A DNA stretch of 7,008 bases, taken from the IMG/VR virus record IMGVR_UViG_2693429728_000013; one strand, 5' to 3'. Position 1 is the stretch's first letter. Each line of letters starts with the position of its first letter. Source of the stretch: a virus. Taxonomy: Duplodnaviria; Heunggongvirae; Uroviricota; Caudoviricetes. The notes below the pieces were generated by a model. It saw only the letters and a list, made by a program, of their open reading frames with translations, searched no databases and was not told the DNA's origin. The translations under genes and the position numbers were made by a program. Positions 517 through 6,541 of this stretch are shown piece by piece.

Positions 517-723
517 ATGGAAAAAATCACAACGGGTGTGTCATACACCACGTCAGCGGTGGGGACGGGATACTGGTTACTGCAGCTGCTGGACAAAGTC
601 TCTCCGTCCCAGTGGGTGGCAATAGGTGTACTGGGGAGTCTGCTGTTTGGCCTGCTGACGTATCTGACTAACCTGTATTTCAAAATCAGGGAGGACCGCC
701 GTAAGACGGCGCGGGGAGACTAA
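517..723 (+). CDS. S: Holin S, class II / pinholin family (phage 21 S21 / Stx-phage 933W type)
   Basis: 68-aa [71 protein letters not shown]: two hydrophobic helices and a charged C-terminal tail, closely resembling pinholin S21 as recalled. GGAGA 10 nt upstream of the ATG. Lies upstream of a SAR endolysin, the usual pinholin partner. Confidence 0.85.
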
Positions 724-1760: not shown

Positions 1761-2294
1761 ATGAACACCAAAATCAAATACGGCCTGTCGGCTGCTGTTC
1801 TGGCGCTGATTGCCGCTGGTGCGCCTGCGCCTGACATTCTCGACCAGTTTCTGGATGAAAAGGAAGGTAACCACACCACGGCATACCGTGATGGTGCGGG
1901 GATCTGGACCATCTGCCGTGGTGCCATCATGGTGGATGGTAAACCTGTTGTTCCAGGCATGAAGTTGTCGAAGGCAAAATGCGCTCAGGTTAACGCCATT
2001 GAGCGTAATAAGGCGCTGGCATGGGTGGAGAAAAACATCAAAGTGCCATTGACCGAACCACAGAAAGCGGGGATTGCGTCATTCTGTCCGTACAACATTG
2101 GCCCCGGTAAGTGTTTCCCGTCGACGTTTTATAAACGAATTAATGCAGGCGATCGCAGGGGGGCGTGTGAGGCGATTCGCTGGTGGATTAAGGACGGTGG
2201 CAGAGACTGCCGTATTCGCTCAAACAACTGTTACGGTCAGGTATCCCGTCGCGACCAGGAGAGTGCGCTGGCGTGCTGGGGAATTGACAGATAA
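1761..2294 (+). CDS. R: SAR endolysin R (T4-lysozyme-like, GH24 family), 933W/Stx-phage type
   Basis: 177-aa ORF. N-terminal Gly/Ala-rich signal-anchor-release helix (YGLSAAVLALIAAGAPAP) followed by the catalytic triad spacing E-x8-D-x5-T (EGNHTTAYRDGAGIWT), as in T4 lysozyme E11/D20/T26. No obvious Shine-Dalgarno upstream. Confidence 0.9.
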   Translation: MNTKIKYGLSAAVLALIAAGAPAPDILDQFLDEKEGNHTTAYRDGAGIWTICRGAIMVDGKPVVPGMKLSKAKCAQVNAIERNKALAWVEKNIKVPLTEPQKAGIASFCPYNIGPGKCFPSTFYKRINAGDRRGACEAIRWWIKDGGRDCRIRSNNCYGQVSRRDQESALACWGIDR

Positions 2295-2384
2295 GCAGAA
2301 TATTTTGCTGAAAAATGCGGTTTGCTCGCACGGACGGATAACACGAAATCCTGCGAACTGACAAAAACTAAGTGAATAAAAGTA

Positions 2385-2423
2385 AAAACCCCGTTTGTTG
2401 GCTGCAAGCGGGGTTTTGTGTTT
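2385..2423 (+). terminator. Rho-independent terminator between R and Rz
   Basis: Stem AAAACCCCG (2385-2393) / CGGGGTTTT (2409-2417), extendable through TTTG/CAAG inner pairs, followed by TTTTGTGTTT. Confidence 0.55.
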
Positions 2424-2453
2424 CCTGACTCTGGAAAAGTCAAAGGAGAAAGT

Positions 2454-2591
2454 GTGTTTGATTTTAGCAAACTGATTCGGGAGATTCGAGTGATGGCTGA
2501 AAAATTATCCACCTGGAAGTTCATTCTTATCTGGCTGGTGTTTGTGATTATGGCCTCCGGTTATTTCATCGGTCAGATACGCTGGTGGTGA
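2454..2591 (+). CDS. Possible small membrane protein (45 aa), GTG start, translationally coupled to Rz
   Basis: GTG at 2454 preceded by AAAGGAG (2442-2448, 5-nt spacer). Translation MFDFSKLIREIRVMAEKLSTWKFILIWLVFVIMASGYFIGQIRWW has one predicted TM helix. TGA at 2589-2591 lies 1 nt before the Rz ATG at 2593. Below the ORF-track length cutoff; not recognised as a known family. Confidence 0.3.
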   Translation: MFDFSKLIREIRVMAEKLSTWKFILIWLVFVIMASGYFIGQIRWW

Positions 2592-2592
2592 A

Positions 2593-3060
2593 ATGAACCG
2601 CGTACTGTGCGTGGTCATCATTGCCCTGCTGGTGGCCTGTGGTGCGCTTAGTCTGGGGCTGAATCATTACCGTGATAACGCCATAACCTACAAAGAGCAG
2701 CGCGATAAAAAAGTCAGTGAGCTGGAGCAGGCAAATGCAACCATTACTGATATGCAGCAGCGCCAGCGTGATGTTGCTGCACTTGATGCCAGATACTCGA
2801 GGGAATTAGCCGATGCGAGAGCTGAAAATGAAACTCTTCGCGCTGACGTTGCCGCTGGTCGTAAGCGCCTGCGGATCAACGCCACCTGTCCAGGCTCCGT
2901 GCGTGAAGCCCCCACCACCTCCGGCGTGGATAATGCAACCGGCCCCCAACTGGCAGACACCGTTACACGGGATTATTTCACCCTCAGAGAGCGGCTGATG
3001 ACGATGCACAAGCAACTGGAAGGGGCACAGGACTATATCCGCACTCAGTGCCTGAAATAA
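2593..3060 (+). CDS. Rz: Rz i-spanin (inner-membrane spanin subunit)
   Basis: 155-aa ORF with N-terminal TM helix and NHYRDNAITYK...DVAALDA...DYFTLRERL motifs closely matching lambda Rz as recalled; position downstream of R. Confidence 0.9.
   Translation: MNRVLCVVIIALLVACGALSLGLNHYRDNAITYKEQRDKKVSELEQANATITDMQQRQRDVAALDARYSRELADARAENETLRADVAAGRKRLRINATCPGSVREAPTTSGVDNATGPQLADTVTRDYFTLRERLMTMHKQLEGAQDYIRTQCLK
2813..2998 (+). CDS. Rz1: Rz1 o-spanin (outer-membrane lipoprotein spanin subunit), embedded in the +1 frame of Rz
   Basis: 61-aa ORF entirely inside Rz: MRELKMKLFALTLPLVVSACGS (lipobox VSAC) followed by a Pro-rich segment VKPPPPPAWIMQPAPNWQTP, as in lambda Rz1. Confidence 0.85.
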   Translation: MRELKMKLFALTLPLVVSACGSTPPVQAPCVKPPPPPAWIMQPAPNWQTPLHGIISPSESG

Positions 3061-3684
3061 GTTTTGTTGATGCGCCGTATCGTCGCTGTATTCCCTCATT
3101 AACAGAGACCGCAGCCCGACAGGGAGACTCCTCTGCGCGAGTGTGCGGGGATAATCAAAAACGATACACACTGGGGTTTACCGCGTTAACGGAGCGCGGC
3201 GTTGTCCCCTCATAGTCGCCTGTCCGGTGCGATGGTGGAAGAAGCCGGATGTTTATCACTATTAATTGATGACACAGAAATGGATTCATTGAATTTCAGC
3301 ACGTTTTTGTATTCGTGTTATTGAACATCTGTTTATTTTACTTTTAACATATTGATAATAAAAAGAGCTGTAAATCTTTAGATGAGTCGATTTTGTCCGG
3401 GGAAGTTCAAATGGATTTTATGCTGACGGTTTCTGGTGTGGTTATCCTGTCCATTGCTTATACTGCAGATAAATATGGCTGCCATTTGTTATCACGTATT
3501 GGCGCTTATTGTTCGTTGATGCTGATTTTCTCGTCGCTTTTTTTTTGAGTAAGTTATATTAATTATAACAAATAATTTTCTGTGTTATTTTTTCAGGCTA
3601 TCCCGTCAGAGGGGAAGCCTGTACTGCCGGGGAGCGAATGGAAAACTGATGTGTCCGGTAACTGCGTGTTCTGTGAACACCATG

Positions 3685-3870
3685 TTACTTAATTATGTAA
3701 TTCATACCCGAACTCTCTGTTGACAGCCTTCTTCTGCAGGCTTCAATAACCCACGCTGAAAAGTTTCCTGAACCTTTCAGATCAAGAGCGATGTTAATTT
3801 GTTCAATCATCTGGTTTGGAAATCGGATGTTGCGGGTTGTTGTTCTGCGGGTTCTGTTCTTTGATGACAT
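3685..3870 (-). CDS. Small ribbon-helix-helix-like protein (YlcI/YnfO, DUF3950-like), 61 aa
   Basis: Only minus-strand ORF in the spacer: MSSKNRTRRTTTRNIRFPNQMIEQINIALDLKGSGNFSAWVIEACRRRL... Basic N-terminus then a beta-strand/helix pattern typical of Arc/MetJ/CopG folds. Resembles the small DLP12 protein YlcI, which I recall lying just upstream of the Nu1 homologue; family assignment is from memory. Confidence 0.5.
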   Translation of the reverse strand: MSSKNRTRRTTTRNIRFPNQMIEQINIALDLKGSGNFSAWVIEACRRRLSTESSGMNYIIK

Positions 3871-4029: not shown

Positions 4030-4258
4030 ATCATTTTGCGGGTCCTTTCCGGCGATCCGACAGGTTACGGGGCGGCGACCTCGCGGGTTTTCGCTATTTA
4101 TGAAAATTTTCCGGTTTAAGGCGTTTCCGTTCTTCTTCGCCGTAACCTAATGTTTTTATTTAAAACACCCCCTGAAAAGAAAGGAAACGACAGGTGCTGA
4201 AAACGGGCTTTTTGGCCTCTGTCGTTTCCTTTCTCTGTTTTTGTCCGTGGAATGAACA
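4030..4258. other. cos: cos site: cosQ (about 4040-4068), cosN 12-nt cohesive end GGGCGGCGACCT (4070-4081), cosB with terminase/IHF binding sites (4082 to about 4250)
   Basis: GGGCGGCGACCT present exactly at 4070-4081, followed by CGCGGGTTTTCGCTATTTATGAAAATTTTCCGGTTTAAGG..., which matches the lambda left end as recalled. Upstream GGTCCTTTCCGG..GATCCGACAGGTTACG matches the lambda right end. Confidence 0.85.
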
Positions 4259-4804
4259 ATGGAAGTCAACAAAAAGCAGCTGGCTGACATTTTCGGTGCG
4301 AGTATCCGTACCATTCAGAACTGGCAGGAACAGGGAATGCCCGTTCTGCGAGGCGGTGGCAAGGGTAATGAGGTGCTTTATGACTCTGCCGCCGTCATAA
4401 AATGGTATGCCGAAAGGGATGCTGAAATTGAGAACGAAAAGCTGCGCCGGGAAGTTGAAGAACTGCGGCAGGCCAGCGAGACAGATCTCCAGCCAGGGAC
4501 TATTGAGTACGAACGCCATCGACTTACGCGTGCGCAGGCCGACGCACAGGAGCTGAAAAATGCCAGAGACTCCGCTGAAGTGGTGGAAACCGCATTCTGT
4601 ACTTTCGTGCTGTCGCGGATCGCAGGTGAAATTGCCAGTATTCTCGACGGGATCCCCCTGTCGGTGCAGCGGCGTTTTCCGGAACTGGAAAACCGACATG
4701 TTGATTTCCTGAAACGGGATATCATCAAAGCCATGAACAAAGCAGCCGCGCTGGATGAACTGATACCGGGGTTGCTGAGTGAATATATCGAACAGTCAGG
4801 TTAA
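4259..4804 (+). CDS. Nu1: Terminase small subunit Nu1
   Basis: 181-aa ORF MEVNKKQLADIFGASIRTIQNWQEQGMPVLRGGGKGNEVLYDSAAVIKWYAERDAEIENEKL..., essentially identical to lambda gpNu1 as recalled (N-terminal winged-HTH DNA-binding region). Immediately downstream of cosB. Confidence 0.95.
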   Translation: MEVNKKQLADIFGASIRTIQNWQEQGMPVLRGGGKGNEVLYDSAAVIKWYAERDAEIENEKLRREVEELRQASETDLQPGTIEYERHRLTRAQADAQELKNARDSAEVVETAFCTFVLSRIAGEIASILDGIPLSVQRRFPELENRHVDFLKRDIIKAMNKAAALDELIPGLLSEYIEQSG

Positions 4805-5560
4805 CAGGCTGCGGCATTTTGTCCGCGCCGGGCTTCGCTCACTGTTCAGGCCGGAGCCACAGACCGCCGTTGAATGGGCGGATGCCAATTACTATCTCCC
4901 GAAAGAATCCGCATACCAGGAAGGGCGCTGGGAAACACTGCCCTTTCAGCGGGCCATCATGAATGCGATGGGCAGCGACTACATCCGTGAGGTGAATGTG
5001 GTGAAGTCTGCCCGTGTCGGTTATTCCAAAATGCTGCTGGGTGTTTATGCCTACTTTATAGAGCATAAGCAGCGCAACACCCTTCTCTGGTTGCCGACGG
5101 ATGGTGATGCCGAGAACTTTATGAAAACCCACGTTGAGCCGACCATCCGCGATATTCCGTCGCTGCTGGCGCTGGCTCCGTGGTATGGCAAAAAGCACCG
5201 GGATAACACGCTCACTATGAAGCGTTTTTCCAATGGTCGTGGCTTCTGGTGCCTGGGCGGTAAAGCGGCAAAAAACTACCGTGAAAAGTCGGTGGATGTG
5301 GCGGGTTATGATGAACTTGCTGCCTTTGATGAGGATATTGAACAGGAAGGCTCTCCGACGTTCCTGGGTGACAAGCGTATTGAAGGCTCGGTCTGGCCAA
5401 AGTCCATCCGTGGCTCCACGCCCAAAGTGAGAGGCACCTGCCAGATTGAGCGTGCAGCCAGTGAATCCCCGCATTTTATGCGTTTTCATGTTGCCTGTCC
5501 GCACTGCGGGGAGGAGCAGTATCTTAAATTTGGCGATAAAGAGACGTCGTTTGGCCTCAA
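4580..5560. repeat. Tandem direct repeat, copy 1 (981 bp; Nu1 3' part plus A 5' part)
   Basis: Sequence from GTGGTGGAAACCGCATTCTG... through ...GTCGTTTGGCCTCAA recurs at an offset of exactly 981 bp. About six single-base differences between copies (e.g. CATCCGTGAG vs CGTCCGCGAG, CGTGTCGG vs CGTGTTGG, TACTTTATA vs TACTTCATA, CCTTCTCTGG vs CCTTATCTGG). Confidence 0.9.
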
Positions 5561-5693
5561 GTGGTGGAAACCGCATTCTGTACTTTCGTGCTGTCGCGGA
5601 TCGCAGGTGAAATTGCCAGTATTCTCGACGGGATCCCCCTGTCGGTGCAGCGGCGTTTTCCGGAACTGGAAAACCGACATGTTGATTTCCTGA
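4779..5693 (+). pseudogene. A: Terminase large subunit A, first copy, interrupted by the duplication junction at about 5560/5561
   Basis: GTG start overlapping the Nu1 3' end as in lambda. First ~264 codons read as gpA (MNISNSQVNRLRHF...KSARVGYSK...GDKETSFGLKW), then the frame runs into the duplicated Nu1 sequence out of frame (WKPHSVLSCCRG...) and stops at 5693. Confidence 0.7.
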
Positions 5694-5785
5694 AACGGGA
5701 TATCATCAAAGCCATGAACAAAGCAGCCGCGCTGGATGAACTGATACCGGGGTTGCTGAGTGAATATATCGAACAGTCAGGTTAA
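5561..5785 (+). pseudogene. Duplicated C-terminal fragment of Nu1 (about 74 codons, lacks the N-terminal DNA-binding part)
   Basis: Identical to Nu1 residues VETAFCTFVLSRIAGEIASILDG...EYIEQSG; same reading frame as Nu1 (offset 981 = 3 x 327); no native start or RBS. Confidence 0.7.
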
Positions 5786-6541
5786 CAGGCTGCGGCATTT
5801 TGTCCGCGCCGGGCTTCGCTCACTGTTCAGGCCGGAGCCACAGACCGCCGTTGAATGGGCGGATGCCAATTACTATCTCCCGAAAGAATCCGCATACCAG
5901 GAAGGGCGCTGGGAAACACTGCCCTTTCAGCGGGCCATCATGAATGCGATGGGCAGTGACTACGTCCGCGAGGTGAATGTGGTGAAGTCTGCCCGTGTTG
6001 GTTATTCCAAAATGCTGCTGGGTGTTTATGCCTACTTCATAGAGCATAAGCAGCGCAACACCCTTATCTGGTTGCCGACGGATGGTGATGCCGAGAACTT
6101 TATGAAAACCCACGTTGAGCCGACCATCCGCGATATTCCGTCGCTGCTGGCGCTGGCTCCGTGGTATGGCAAAAAGCACCGGGATAACACGCTCACTATG
6201 AAGCGTTTTTCCAATGGTCGTGGCTTCTGGTGCCTGGGCGGTAAAGCGGCAAAAAACTACCGTGAAAAGTCGGTGGATGTGGCGGGTTATGATGAACTTG
6301 CTGCCTTTGATGAGGATATTGAACAGGAAGGCTCTCCGACGTTCCTGGGTGACAAGCGTATTGAAGGCTCGGTCTGGCCAAAGTCCATCCGTGGCTCCAC
6401 GCCCAAAGTGAGAGGCACCTGCCAGATTGAGCGTGCAGCCAGTGAATCCCCGCATTTTATGCGTTTTCATGTTGCCTGTCCGCACTGCGGGGAGGAGCAG
6501 TATCTTAAATTTGGCGATAAAGAGACGTCGTTTGGCCTCAA
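5561..6541. repeat. Tandem direct repeat, copy 2 (981 bp)
   Basis: Same as copy 1 at offset +981. Junction has microhomology: CTGAAGTGG in Nu1 versus CTCAAATGG in A. Confidence 0.9.

Follow-up and report, generated by a model that had tools for sequence, protein, structure and literature searches.

Several described systems resemble, each in part, the locus analysed here: a 45-codon open reading frame (ORF) with its 5′ flank, located between the endolysin gene R and the spanin gene Rz of IMG/VR virus record IMGVR_UViG_2693429728_000013, a 7008-nucleotide (nt) stretch of DNA from a member of the Caudoviricetes (this whole stretch is referred to below as the window). In phage P22, work from the Susskind laboratory is said to have placed the sar promoter inside the 5′ end of ant, from where it fires backwards to give an RNA that covers the intercistronic region and ribosome-binding site (RBS) and ends at a terminator between the sense genes. 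The sar RNA is 68/69 nt long and pairs with ant mRNA (PMC12197685). Our locus matches this layout in silico, with a predicted promoter that points backwards from within the 5′ end of its target, a predicted RNA of ∼ 70 nt and an intercistronic end, but there is no sequence or Rfam similarity to the RNA predicted here, the target is a 45-amino acid (aa) membrane peptide of the late operon rather than the immI antirepressor, and the element forms a mobile cassette complete in itself, which many types of phage carry. The safest statement is that the locus holds a genuine, conserved gene, for the most part unannotated, for a small inner-membrane protein, and that this gene rides on a compact, mobile late-region cassette of which the upstream hairpin is a part. 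Beyond that, we lean with modest confidence towards a late-expressed, membrane-active peptide that would be gated by an antisense RNA and would resemble a type I toxin or P22 sar/ant.

Toxin–antitoxin (TA) systems of type I (hok/sok, symE/symR, ldr/rdl, zorO/orzO, sprG1/sprF1) share with the cassette a hydrophobic peptide of < 60 aa with a single transmembrane (TM) helix, a description that fits the 45-aa product, and a cis-antisense small RNA (sRNA), here a predicted one, over the initiation region of the ORF. The antisense promoter of SymR lies within the first codons of symE, as is predicted for the cassette, and SprG1 of Staphylococcus aureus comes as two in-frame products of 44 and 31 aa, to be compared with the 45- and 32-aa products predicted here. 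Prophage carriage is shared with hokW/sokW of prophage Sp5 (PMC8621323), and one distant member of the cassette family (L428) lies in a prophage island of ParE, RelB, YafQ and HicB type II TA modules. In contrast to these systems, the cassette has no toxin promoter that we could find and carries a terminator upstream instead, and no homology of its peptide to the described toxin families (Hok/Gef, Ldr, Ibs, TisB, ShoB, Zor and others) was found in Pfam, NCBIfam, PADLOC or PDB; the earlier note on this stretch, made from the letters alone, had likewise seen no resemblance to Hok.

Holin/antiholin genes (S105/S107 of lambda, S68/S71 of phage 21) also encode small membrane proteins next to the endolysin gene and are expressed late, and their dual starts, like the two in-frame starts predicted here, differ by a charged N-terminal extension. 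However, the holin forms differ by 2–3 residues and the cassette forms by 13, and the cassette product combines a single TM helix with a C-terminal tail of 3–5 residues (QIRWW) in place of the charged hydrophilic cytoplasmic C-terminus expected of a holin. The ORF has no match among the holin families of Pfam and PHROG, whereas the S21-type pinholin gene already present in the window matches PF04971, and the cassette gene is found in tail operons as well. The suggestion that the product might be ‘antiholin-like’ was thus not borne out as far as family membership is concerned. A classical moron consists of a promoter, an ORF and a terminator on the sense strand. Like the morons HK97 gp15 and lambda bor and lom, the cassette adds DNA between genes that lie side by side in relatives and occupies several late junctions, including runs of small ORFs between Pseudomonas tail genes, but its terminator lies upstream, no sense promoter was found, and its sole (predicted) promoter/terminator pair defines an antisense RNA. 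PHROG 6632 and the protein record CAH23245.1 belong to the same protein family as the ORF but are name-only records that give no function, regulation or cassette structure. Since the locus departs from Hok-type toxins, holins and classical morons alike, we place it among the antisense-regulated small phage membrane peptides and in no named family.

The GTG-initiated 45-codon ORF, its AAAGGAG Shine–Dalgarno (SD) element and a stop codon 1 nt before the Rz start had all been proposed in the earlier note and were found exactly so (Table 1). A program-made ORF list opens the frame at GTG 2418, inside the hairpin, for a total of 57 aa; the PHROG 6632 profile matches residues 13–57 of this longer frame over its positions 1–45 of 45 (E = 1.4e-29, 102.7 bits), and an alignment that begins at residue 13, which is GTG 2454, supports the 2454 start. 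A purine-rich SD occupies the same place in every cassette copy examined, mostly as GGAG or GGGAG, and is weaker in locus L427. For comparison, ∼ 300 loci were gathered from phage, genome and viral-contig collections; they contained 281 instances, which amounted to 64 distinct cassettes and 34 distinct proteins, and from these we took 22 representatives with < 93% nucleotide identity (from phages of Escherichia, Salmonella, Citrobacter, Edwardsiella, Yersinia, Sodalis, Brenneria, Pantoea, Symbiopectobacterium, Providencia, Trabulsiella and Pseudomonas); seven distant members were fetched later. The frame is intact, at 44–51 aa, in all 22 representatives and all seven distant members, and the remaining five frames carry stops in most or all of the 22. 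The proportion of nonsynonymous differences (pN) was lower than that of synonymous ones (pS) in 231 of 231 pairs, with a median dN/dS of 0.19 and a mean pS of 0.64, which puts synonymous sites near saturation; at codons 23–43, 45–74% of the pairs with the same amino acid differ in codon. For the long form, the start codon is GTG or TTG in all but one of the 22 representatives (in L247 it has mutated to GCG) and ATG in five of the seven distant members.

These comparative data show purifying selection on the protein, and we conclude that the ORF is a real, conserved gene for what is predicted to be a tiny membrane protein. The earlier note had left the standing of the ORF to its conservation and codon-substitution pattern in related prophages; both speak for a gene, and no disruption of the frame was seen. 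The idea of a chance ORF in a non-coding R–Rz spacer could appeal to the lack of a Pfam or NCBIfam match to the peptide and of RefSeq annotation by the Prokaryotic Genome Annotation Pipeline (PGAP) in most of the Escherichia coli records listed, but it is refuted by the frame that stays open across diverged and distant members, by pN < pS in every pair and by the stops that most or all representatives have in each of the five alternative frames, and we give it practically no credence. Phage CP-1639 carries the ORF as CAH23245.1 (EC_CP1639_39), a ‘putative bacteriophage protein’ whose product is 95.6% identical, and H-19B leaves it unannotated, as do most of the RefSeq (PGAP) E. coli genome records listed. 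A minus-strand ORF of 95 aa (2237–2524) annotated in CP-1639 was considered as well and judged spurious, as most reverse frames contain stops across the representatives. Of 5426 complete E. coli genomes, 903 contain the 213-bp cassette over at least 80% of its length, so that about one in six of them, with many Shiga-toxin (Stx) prophages among these, carries an element that most annotations omit.

In phages PhiR40_1 and PhiR47_1, the homologous R and Rz genes directly adjoin each other, and a query made of the R–Rz junction aligns there in one piece and free of gaps; the corresponding genes rrrQ and rzpQ overlap in the Qin prophage of E. coli K-12. As Qin has no cassette, K-12 was set aside as a source of experimental data. 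The 298 nt that separate R and Rz in the window are therefore inserted DNA, in keeping with the remark in the earlier note that lambda has nothing at this position. The first ∼ 90–95 nt after the R stop are found, at 86–91% identity (83–85% in a few records), in more than 250 cassette-less Stx phages, which carry other inserts, such as ant; this R-linked flank is a separate, non-coding element. The extent of the cassette itself was taken from an alignment of five contexts, namely the R–Rz junctions of E. coli and of Salmonella phage SPN3UB, the junction of the baseplate V gene with the next gene in Rac-SA53 and in SEN34, and a run of small ORFs of unknown function between tail genes of Pseudomonas phages; conservation runs from ∼ 10 nt upstream of the hairpin to the stop codon of the ORF. 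In Rac-SA53 and SEN34, the gene downstream of baseplate V is W-like, which makes this a P2-like V–W junction.

In the neighbour analysis of the representatives, the cassette lay directly downstream of endolysin genes from six non-homologous families (PHROGs 7, 873, 315, 1259, 465 and 181), with spanin or terminase genes on its other side, or else in baseplate/tail-fibre junctions, and the ORF was always co-oriented with the flanking late genes. The endolysin-adjacent setting applies to this window and to about half of the representatives but not to the baseplate/tail copies. The description of the product as a lysis-cassette protein therefore holds for its neighbourhood here and next to these six endolysin families, but the copies in baseplate and tail operons show that it is not specific to lysis. 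A similar qualification applies to the ‘post-R terminator’ of the earlier note: a hairpin with a T-run is present before the ORF, but, as it travels into baseplate and tail operons without R, it belongs to the mobile cassette of the ORF and not to R.

Compensatory changes are frequent in the hairpin, with 9 of 15 pairs altered on both sides (e.g. CCCC/GGGG to CTCC/GGAG in Edwardsiella), and both strands have U-rich tails. A smaller stem-loop, SL1, just upstream of the SD, reads CCTTG(7 nt)CAAGG in most relatives, where it overlaps the SD; compensatory changes affect eight of its nine pairs and 92.7% of its alignment cells are paired. The alignments thus show that the predicted hairpin and leader covary and that they move with the ORF among unrelated phage contexts. 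Counts of G·U against A·C combinations, which bear on the strand under selection, gave a mixed signal: in SL1 the ratio (20:8) favours the antisense strand, and in the terminator helix the counts made on the antisense strand (G·U 20 vs. A·C 36) favour the sense strand. The simplest reading of this mixture is a truly bidirectional intrinsic terminator that forms the 5′ end of the cassette.

The cassette has no sense-strand promoter of its own. The promoter scan had no promoter-like site near it on the sense strand, no conserved −35/−10 pair lies upstream of the ORF (conservation between contexts starts ∼ 70 nt before the start codon and the loops vary), and downstream of the ORF, where the Rz ATG follows the stop after 1 nt, there is no terminator either. 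On the opposite strand, codons 3–6 spell a predicted extended −10 promoter. Codons 3–5 (GAT, TTT/ATT/CTT and AGC) show zero synonymous variation among the 22 representatives, in a gene that is elsewhere near saturation. We had expected beforehand that any substitution of Ser5 would be confined to the ‘n’ of the TGn motif and checked this on the seven distant members; the expectation was borne out, as the Ser to Ile replacements through AGC to ATC alter only that position (Table 1). The element TAnnnT occurs 0–12 nt upstream of the complement of the start codon in 31 of the 34 distinct modules, in 23 of them at exactly 4 nt, and 27 of these 31 also have the TG of TGnTAnnnT; the control on the sense strand, in the same window of positions, gave 3 of 34. 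Another antisense promoter-like site (2576..2547), from a consensus scan, was rejected, its −10 not being conserved in SPN3UB and the number of such sites being that expected by chance.

The RNA that this promoter would initiate is predicted to start at ∼ 2455 and to end at ∼ 2380, in the minus-strand U-run of the hairpin, and would consist, in this order, of a 5′ anti-SD sequence, SL1, an A-rich (ARN)n linker, the terminator stem-loop SL2 and a U tail. Its predicted fold has −21.9 kcal/mol (z = −4.1; z from −3.0 to −4.1 over four diverged versions), and three diverged versions adopt the same two-hairpin shape. A covariance model scores 44–99 bits on the minus strand of every cassette locus and finds nothing in the K-12 Qin and Sp9 controls. 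In the alignment, 17 of 24 pairs are changed on both sides, 89.8% of cells are paired as against 36–54% when the partners are slid, and none of 500 shuffles reached the observed values, counts that lean towards the structure in so far as the alignment was fitted to the model. Taken with the predicted internal start codon described below, the predicted opposite-strand promoter, which like that start had escaped the earlier note, points to antisense-RNA control and two isoforms, and the cassette probably also makes a small antisense RNA over the RBS of the gene.

The same 5′ module also precedes other peptides. A search with the leader pattern, followed by inspection of the downstream ORFs, showed that further small ORFs with a single TM helix follow this hairpin and leader. 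Proteins of family B (M[AG]KYKRILLRLTMKNG..., 50–60 aa; PHROGs 1115, 4493 and 3246) end in AIRWW, 1 nt before Rz, in their Salmonella and O157 versions, family C is typified by VKALELFERSK...VVRWW, and mosaics among the families behind the shared module were seen as well. In these ORFs, the minus strand of the first codons has TATACT, TACACT, TACAAT or TAATAT, with the TATACT or TAATAT of families B and C at about the same offset. Homology between the peptides of family A, to which the ORF of the window belongs, and family B was considered and dropped at an hhalign probability of 20%; they are handled here as unrelated peptides that share a 5′ module. Family C likewise has no demonstrable relationship to family A. 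All three families are annotated throughout as being of unknown function.

Several observations weigh against an antisense-gated membrane peptide. The −35 region is poor (3/6), and the terminator helix is, by the G·U/A·C counts, at least as good on the sense strand. In some derived cassettes (L010/Sp4-type and L306), the ORF starts 25–33 nt beyond the proximal −10 box, and the predicted RNA would miss the start codon. Hfq cross-linking and cDNA analysis (Hfq-CRAC) of strain Sakai gave no sRNA or peak at the family B cassette of prophage Sp4, and a literature search on the gene or RNA found no paper, transcript, ribosome-profiling or phenotype data set. The baseplate and tail copies do without a lysis cassette, and a terminator inside non-lambdoid tail operons would lower downstream expression. 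Finally, searches of the peptide against Pfam, NCBIfam, PADLOC and PDB at permissive thresholds returned no match, nor did sequence searches reveal similarity to known toxin, holin or defence proteins.

Some of these points would fit a plain late-gene moron with no antisense RNA, in which the hairpin serves the sense strand only, as a terminator, attenuator or 5′ mRNA stabilizer, and codons 3–6 are conserved for translation initiation (for instance through a start that is AU-rich and unstructured or through a site for RNase E or Hfq). The strand asymmetry of the terminator, the missing Hfq-bound sRNA at the Sp4 cassette, the weak −35 together with a consensus promoter scan that finds no site for this box on the minus strand, and the constant co-orientation of the ORF with late genes are all in its favour. 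Yet the conserved positions are the informative ones of an extended −10 (T−15, G−14, T−12, A−11 and T−7) and those in between vary, the motif reappears behind this leader in ORF families without demonstrable homology, the antisense-side U-rich tail of the hairpin keeps a constant distance of ∼ 75 nt from the box, and a Pseudomonas phage retains GAT TTT AGC, codons that are rare in its G+C-rich host. We therefore consider the plain moron rather unlikely, while giving it more weight than any of the other alternatives.

One could also turn the relationship around and regard the sRNA as the main product, acting in trans through its anti-SD 5′ end in the manner of HnrS, AgvB and AsxR, with the ORF as secondary. 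Such a role would agree with the class-II-like layout of the predicted RNA, with its (ARN)n linker and U tail, with a hairpin/leader/−10 module that is kept while the downstream ORF is swapped (A, B, C) or displaced, and with the abundance of trans-acting sRNAs in prophages of enterohaemorrhagic E. coli (PMC4104026, PMC13502914). But purifying selection extends over the whole ORF, including the TM segment outside the RNA, the Sp4 copy has no Hfq-CRAC peak, and no Rfam family matches, all of which make this explanation very improbable. At E ≤ 1, the only hit of the Rfam scan of the window was a sub-threshold, terminator-driven rimP leader (29.9 bits vs. a gathering score of 47), and at gathering scores none of eight related loci had a hit at the cassette. 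HnrS itself (EcOnc10–12), a multicopy sRNA of enterohaemorrhagic E. coli, was considered as the predicted sRNA and rejected, since it maps, in Sakai, to the minus strand downstream of Rz, at a place that corresponds to window positions ∼ 3135–3182; none of the other EcOnc Hfq-bound sRNAs maps to the R–Rz gap of Sakai Sp4, where the family B cassette lies.

A second start within the ORF is predicted at Met14, with an RBS of its own (Table 1), and would yield a product of 32 aa (2493–2591). Met14 is encoded by ATG in 22 of 22 representatives, and Glu10 by GAG in all 21 representatives that have Glu, the 22nd having GGG. One of GGAG, GGGAG or AAGGAG (the last in L422 and L428) precedes Met14 by 6–9 nt in nearly every member, with a weak version in L427; in the seven distant members an internal SD-like element is followed by ATG at codon 13 or 14. 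Some gene callers already use the internal start (P0021–P0023, of which P0022 and P0023 are given as 32 aa). Two in-frame products, of 45 and 32 aa, are thus predicted, and an antisense RNA with an end near +1 would span the long form's SD and leave the SD of the short form uncovered. An mRNA hairpin around the internal SD (codons 7–9 against codon 13) was examined by eye and dropped, as it had no consistent compensatory pattern. Codons 11 and 12 (2484–2489), mostly TTG CGA and here ATT CGA with the rare Arg codon CGA, also lack synonymous variation in the 22 representatives, a constraint that is relaxed among more distant cassettes. It is explained neither by the −10 box nor by the SD of the internal start; the −35 region and the spacer of that start's RBS are possible causes.

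The 45-aa protein is predicted to form an amphipathic helix at residues 4–17 (hydrophobic moment ∼ 0.5), a break at Ser/Pro19 and then a TM helix at residues ∼ 21–42, in agreement with the single hydrophobic helix noted earlier: the 19-residue Kyte–Doolittle mean peaks at 2.13 for residues 24–42, and the AlphaFold2 model has helices at 4–17 and 20–44, with a confidence (pLDDT) of 85.8. As this model amounts to two helices, a fold search is uninformative for such a 45-aa helical hairpin. Five of the six basic residues lie N-terminal of the TM helix, which by the positive-inside rule predicts an N-in orientation, and the C-terminal tail of 3–5 residues, usually RWW, is QIRWW here, with one charge; relatives end in RWW, IKG, LKS or IKQ. 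The product is accordingly predicted to be a small, single-pass, C-terminally anchored inner-membrane protein with its N-terminus inside. When 1.84 billion representative proteins, from a library free of names and annotation, were searched with a profile hidden Markov model, the relatives numbered only 40 and were 32–86 aa long.

A protein of this kind might instead serve lysogenic conversion or superinfection exclusion, like HK97 gp15, Cor or SieB, by blocking phage DNA or altering the envelope, its position in the late operon being incidental. Its size and predicted inner-membrane location, its moron-like insertion at several permissive late junctions, including the Pseudomonas tail small-ORF run, and its wide distribution in E. 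coli would suit such a role. We nevertheless regard it as quite improbable: the cassette lacks a sense-strand promoter and has a terminator immediately before the ORF, the predicted antisense RNA would silence the ORF in lysogens, PADLOC had no match, and the preference for the 3′ end of endolysin genes is strong over six endolysin families.

Returning to the antisense-gated peptide, we propose that a sigma-70 extended −10 promoter in codons 3–6 would fire on the opposite strand to give an sRNA of ∼ 75 nt with full complementarity to the start region and its SD and with its end at the hairpin. Read-through from R would be stopped in the lysogen by this hairpin, and the antisense RNA would block the translation of leaked mRNA, possibly triggering cleavage by RNase III. 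After induction, Q-antiterminated late transcription would pass the hairpin, outnumber the antisense RNA and collide with its promoter; the peptide would then be made from GTG 2454 and ATG 2493 and insert into the inner membrane, and terminating ribosomes could reinitiate at the Rz ATG, 1 nt downstream. The best-supported mechanism would thus have three parts, a double lock in the lysogen (terminator plus cis-antisense sRNA), its release by antiterminated late transcription and translational coupling into Rz. Such coupling had been suggested in the earlier note, and a 1-nt gap between the ORF and Rz recurs in SPN3UB (TAA-C-ATG), Citrobacter braakii (L016; TGA-C-ATG), L237 and L247 and in the family B loci L010 and L309; its recurrence in independent R–Rz contexts makes translational coupling plausible. 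The most speculative step is the last one, in which the peptide would perturb the membrane, as a Hok-type toxin or in a holin/antiholin-like manner, and so tune the timing of the S21-type pinholin and signal-arrest-release (SAR) endolysin. From shape and neighbourhood alone, our best guess would be a modulator of lysis timing or a membrane toxin.

We put forward only tentatively the wider proposal of a previously undescribed, mobile, ‘antisense-locked’ cassette of ∼ 215 bp. It would comprise a bidirectional terminator, a structured leader, a sar/SymR-like promoter in codons 3–6 and a dual-start single-TM peptide from one of at least three families (A, B and C), would insert preferentially at endolysin–spanin junctions but also in tail operons of Enterobacterales and Pseudomonas phages, and would constitute a new lysis-timing or toxin class in which the antisense RNA sets a late-mRNA threshold for the peptide and, in R–Rz contexts, for the coupled spanin as well. 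If this is true, the cassette is a compact case from nature in which a toxin or lysis peptide is kept behind two locks, an upstream terminator and a cis-antisense RNA, and if the peptide and RNA affect the timing or efficiency of prophage lysis, the release of phage and of Shiga toxin would be affected too. The reuse of the 5′ RNA module with different peptide families makes a general rule of phage moron organization testable, and the combination of a hairpin, an SD, an opposite-strand TGnTAnnnT and a single-TM ORF of 40–60 aa can serve as an annotation signature for missed small genes.

Table 1. Features of the window and the corresponding minus-strand elements of distant members (positions refer to the window unless a locus is named).
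Feature	Position	Strand	Basis or details
S21-type pinholin gene	517–723		PF04971 (P21 holin S), 1.4e-32
DUF1327/YdfR-family ORF, 325 aa	728–1705		Between pinholin and R
R, phage lysozyme, with Gly/Ala-rich N-terminal hydrophobic segment	1761..2294	+	PF00959, 2.6e-24; PHROG 7 endolysin
Intergenic stretch from R stop to Rz start, 298 nt	2295..2592		Missing where homologous R and Rz are contiguous
R-linked 3′ flank	2295–2384		Separate from the cassette; conserved in Stx phages (see text)
Mobile cassette, ∼ 215 bp	2376–2591	+ (ORF)	Five-context alignment
Hairpin, G+C-rich, 14 pairs, 6 G-C	2385..2417		Terminator scan; A-run 2376–2388, T-run to 2424
Stem-loop SL1, GACT(CTGGAAA)AGTC	2427..2441		Folding; just upstream of SD
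SD of long form, AAAGGAG	2442..2448	+	Sequence; 5 nt upstream of GTG 2454–2456
45-aa ORF, GTG start, encodes VFDFSKLIREIRVMAEKLSTWKFILIWLVFVIMASGYFIGQIRWW	2454..2591	+	PHROG 6632, annotation in CP-1639, dN/dS, open-frame test
Predicted internal RBS, GGGAG (2479–2483), 9-nt spacer, ATG (2493–2495, Met14)	2479..2495	+	Sequence, conservation
Stop/start junction TGA-A-ATG	2589..2595	+	TGA 2589–2591, A 2592, Rz ATG 2593; TGGTGGTGA is SD-like
Predicted extended −10 promoter, TGCTAAAAT	2461..2469	−	Within codons 3–6 (GAT TTT AGC AAA)
Predicted cis-antisense sRNA, ∼ 75 nt	2378..2455 (both ends approximate)	−	Fold, covariance model
Corresponding element, L421: TGATAAAAT		−	Ser to Ile through AGC to ATC
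Corresponding element, L422: TGATAAACT		−	Ser to Ile through AGC to ATC
Corresponding element, L424: TAAGAT		−	2-nt shift
Corresponding element, L425: TGATATAAT		−	Perfect consensus
Corresponding element, L427: TGCTAATGT		−	
Corresponding element, L428: TGCTAGAAT		−	
Corresponding element, L430: weak match		−	Hairpin also missing
Rz (i-spanin)	2593..3060	+	PF03245, 2.2e-47; PHROG 13 and PHROG 3198 (Rz with embedded Rz1); downstream neighbour of the small ORF
Rz1 (o-spanin), embedded in Rz	2813–2998	+	See Rz
Small terminase subunit (Nu1-like position) and start of large terminase subunit	After Rz		Gene order and annotation of related prophages, not domain search
PHROG 4906-type ORFs of other prophages	L008 2708–2839; L009 2769–2900; L011 (Sakai Sp9) 1827–1973		Immediately upstream of Rz

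The window represents the late region of an E. coli prophage of the lambdoid, Shiga-toxin type, and the 306 nt around the ORF are 97–99% identical to CP-1639, H-19B and many Stx1a, Stx2a and Stx2c phages. The upstream neighbour of the cassette and outside it, R encodes what we take, from its N-terminal sequence and from established knowledge of R21, to be a SAR-type, phage 21-like endolysin. In the ORF between the pinholin gene and R, DUF1327 (the YdfR family) accounts for the first ∼ 100 residues; the ORF is about three times as long as ydfR of K-12 (312 nt including the stop) and matches several PHROGs of unknown function.

Small ORFs of comparable size are found at the same junction elsewhere. 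In other E. coli prophages, further single-TM ORFs of 43–48 aa (MSDKLI...SSGLLG; PHROG 4906, ECs_5722) lie immediately upstream of Rz, and the R–Rz gap is a hotspot for uncharacterized small membrane proteins. Tandem arrays of two modules, each followed by a small single-TM ORF, occur in L424 (1101–1175 and 1425–1503), a metagenomic phage tail region, and in L428 (1416–1499 and 2120–2205), the prophage island flanked by ParE, RelB, YafQ and HicB-type genes; three of the four array ORFs end in AIRWW, and the fourth, P0057 in L424, ends in ...WDKFL.

Just after Rz, window positions 3052–3249 are 93% identical to the segment of Sakai Sp9 that carries EcOnc12 (HnrS), so that the window probably contains a copy of hnrS at ∼ 3135–3182 on the minus strand; HnrS is a 66-nt Hfq-dependent prophage sRNA reported to repress hha (PMC13502914). 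In Rac-SA53 (L006), Rfam sRNA-Xcc1 (RF02221) scores 78 bits, against a gathering score of 53, for a minus-strand site at 4060–4143, ∼ 900 nt downstream of the cassette, between ant and a hypothetical gene. Between the lysis and terminase genes of the window, a minus-strand ORF of 61 aa (3685–3870) runs against the late operon and takes the position of the YlcI/YnfO-family (DUF3950) gene in the annotation of related prophages, an assignment made by position. Farther downstream, a perfect direct repeat of 300 nt (4575–4874 and 5556–5855), spaced by 981 nt, marks a tandem duplication of ∼ 981 bp running from the 3′ end of the gene for the small terminase subunit into the 5′ part of that for the large one. 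Both gene ends are thereby present twice, and a fused ORF of 304 aa (4779–5693) arises; the duplication may be genuine or an artefact of assembly.

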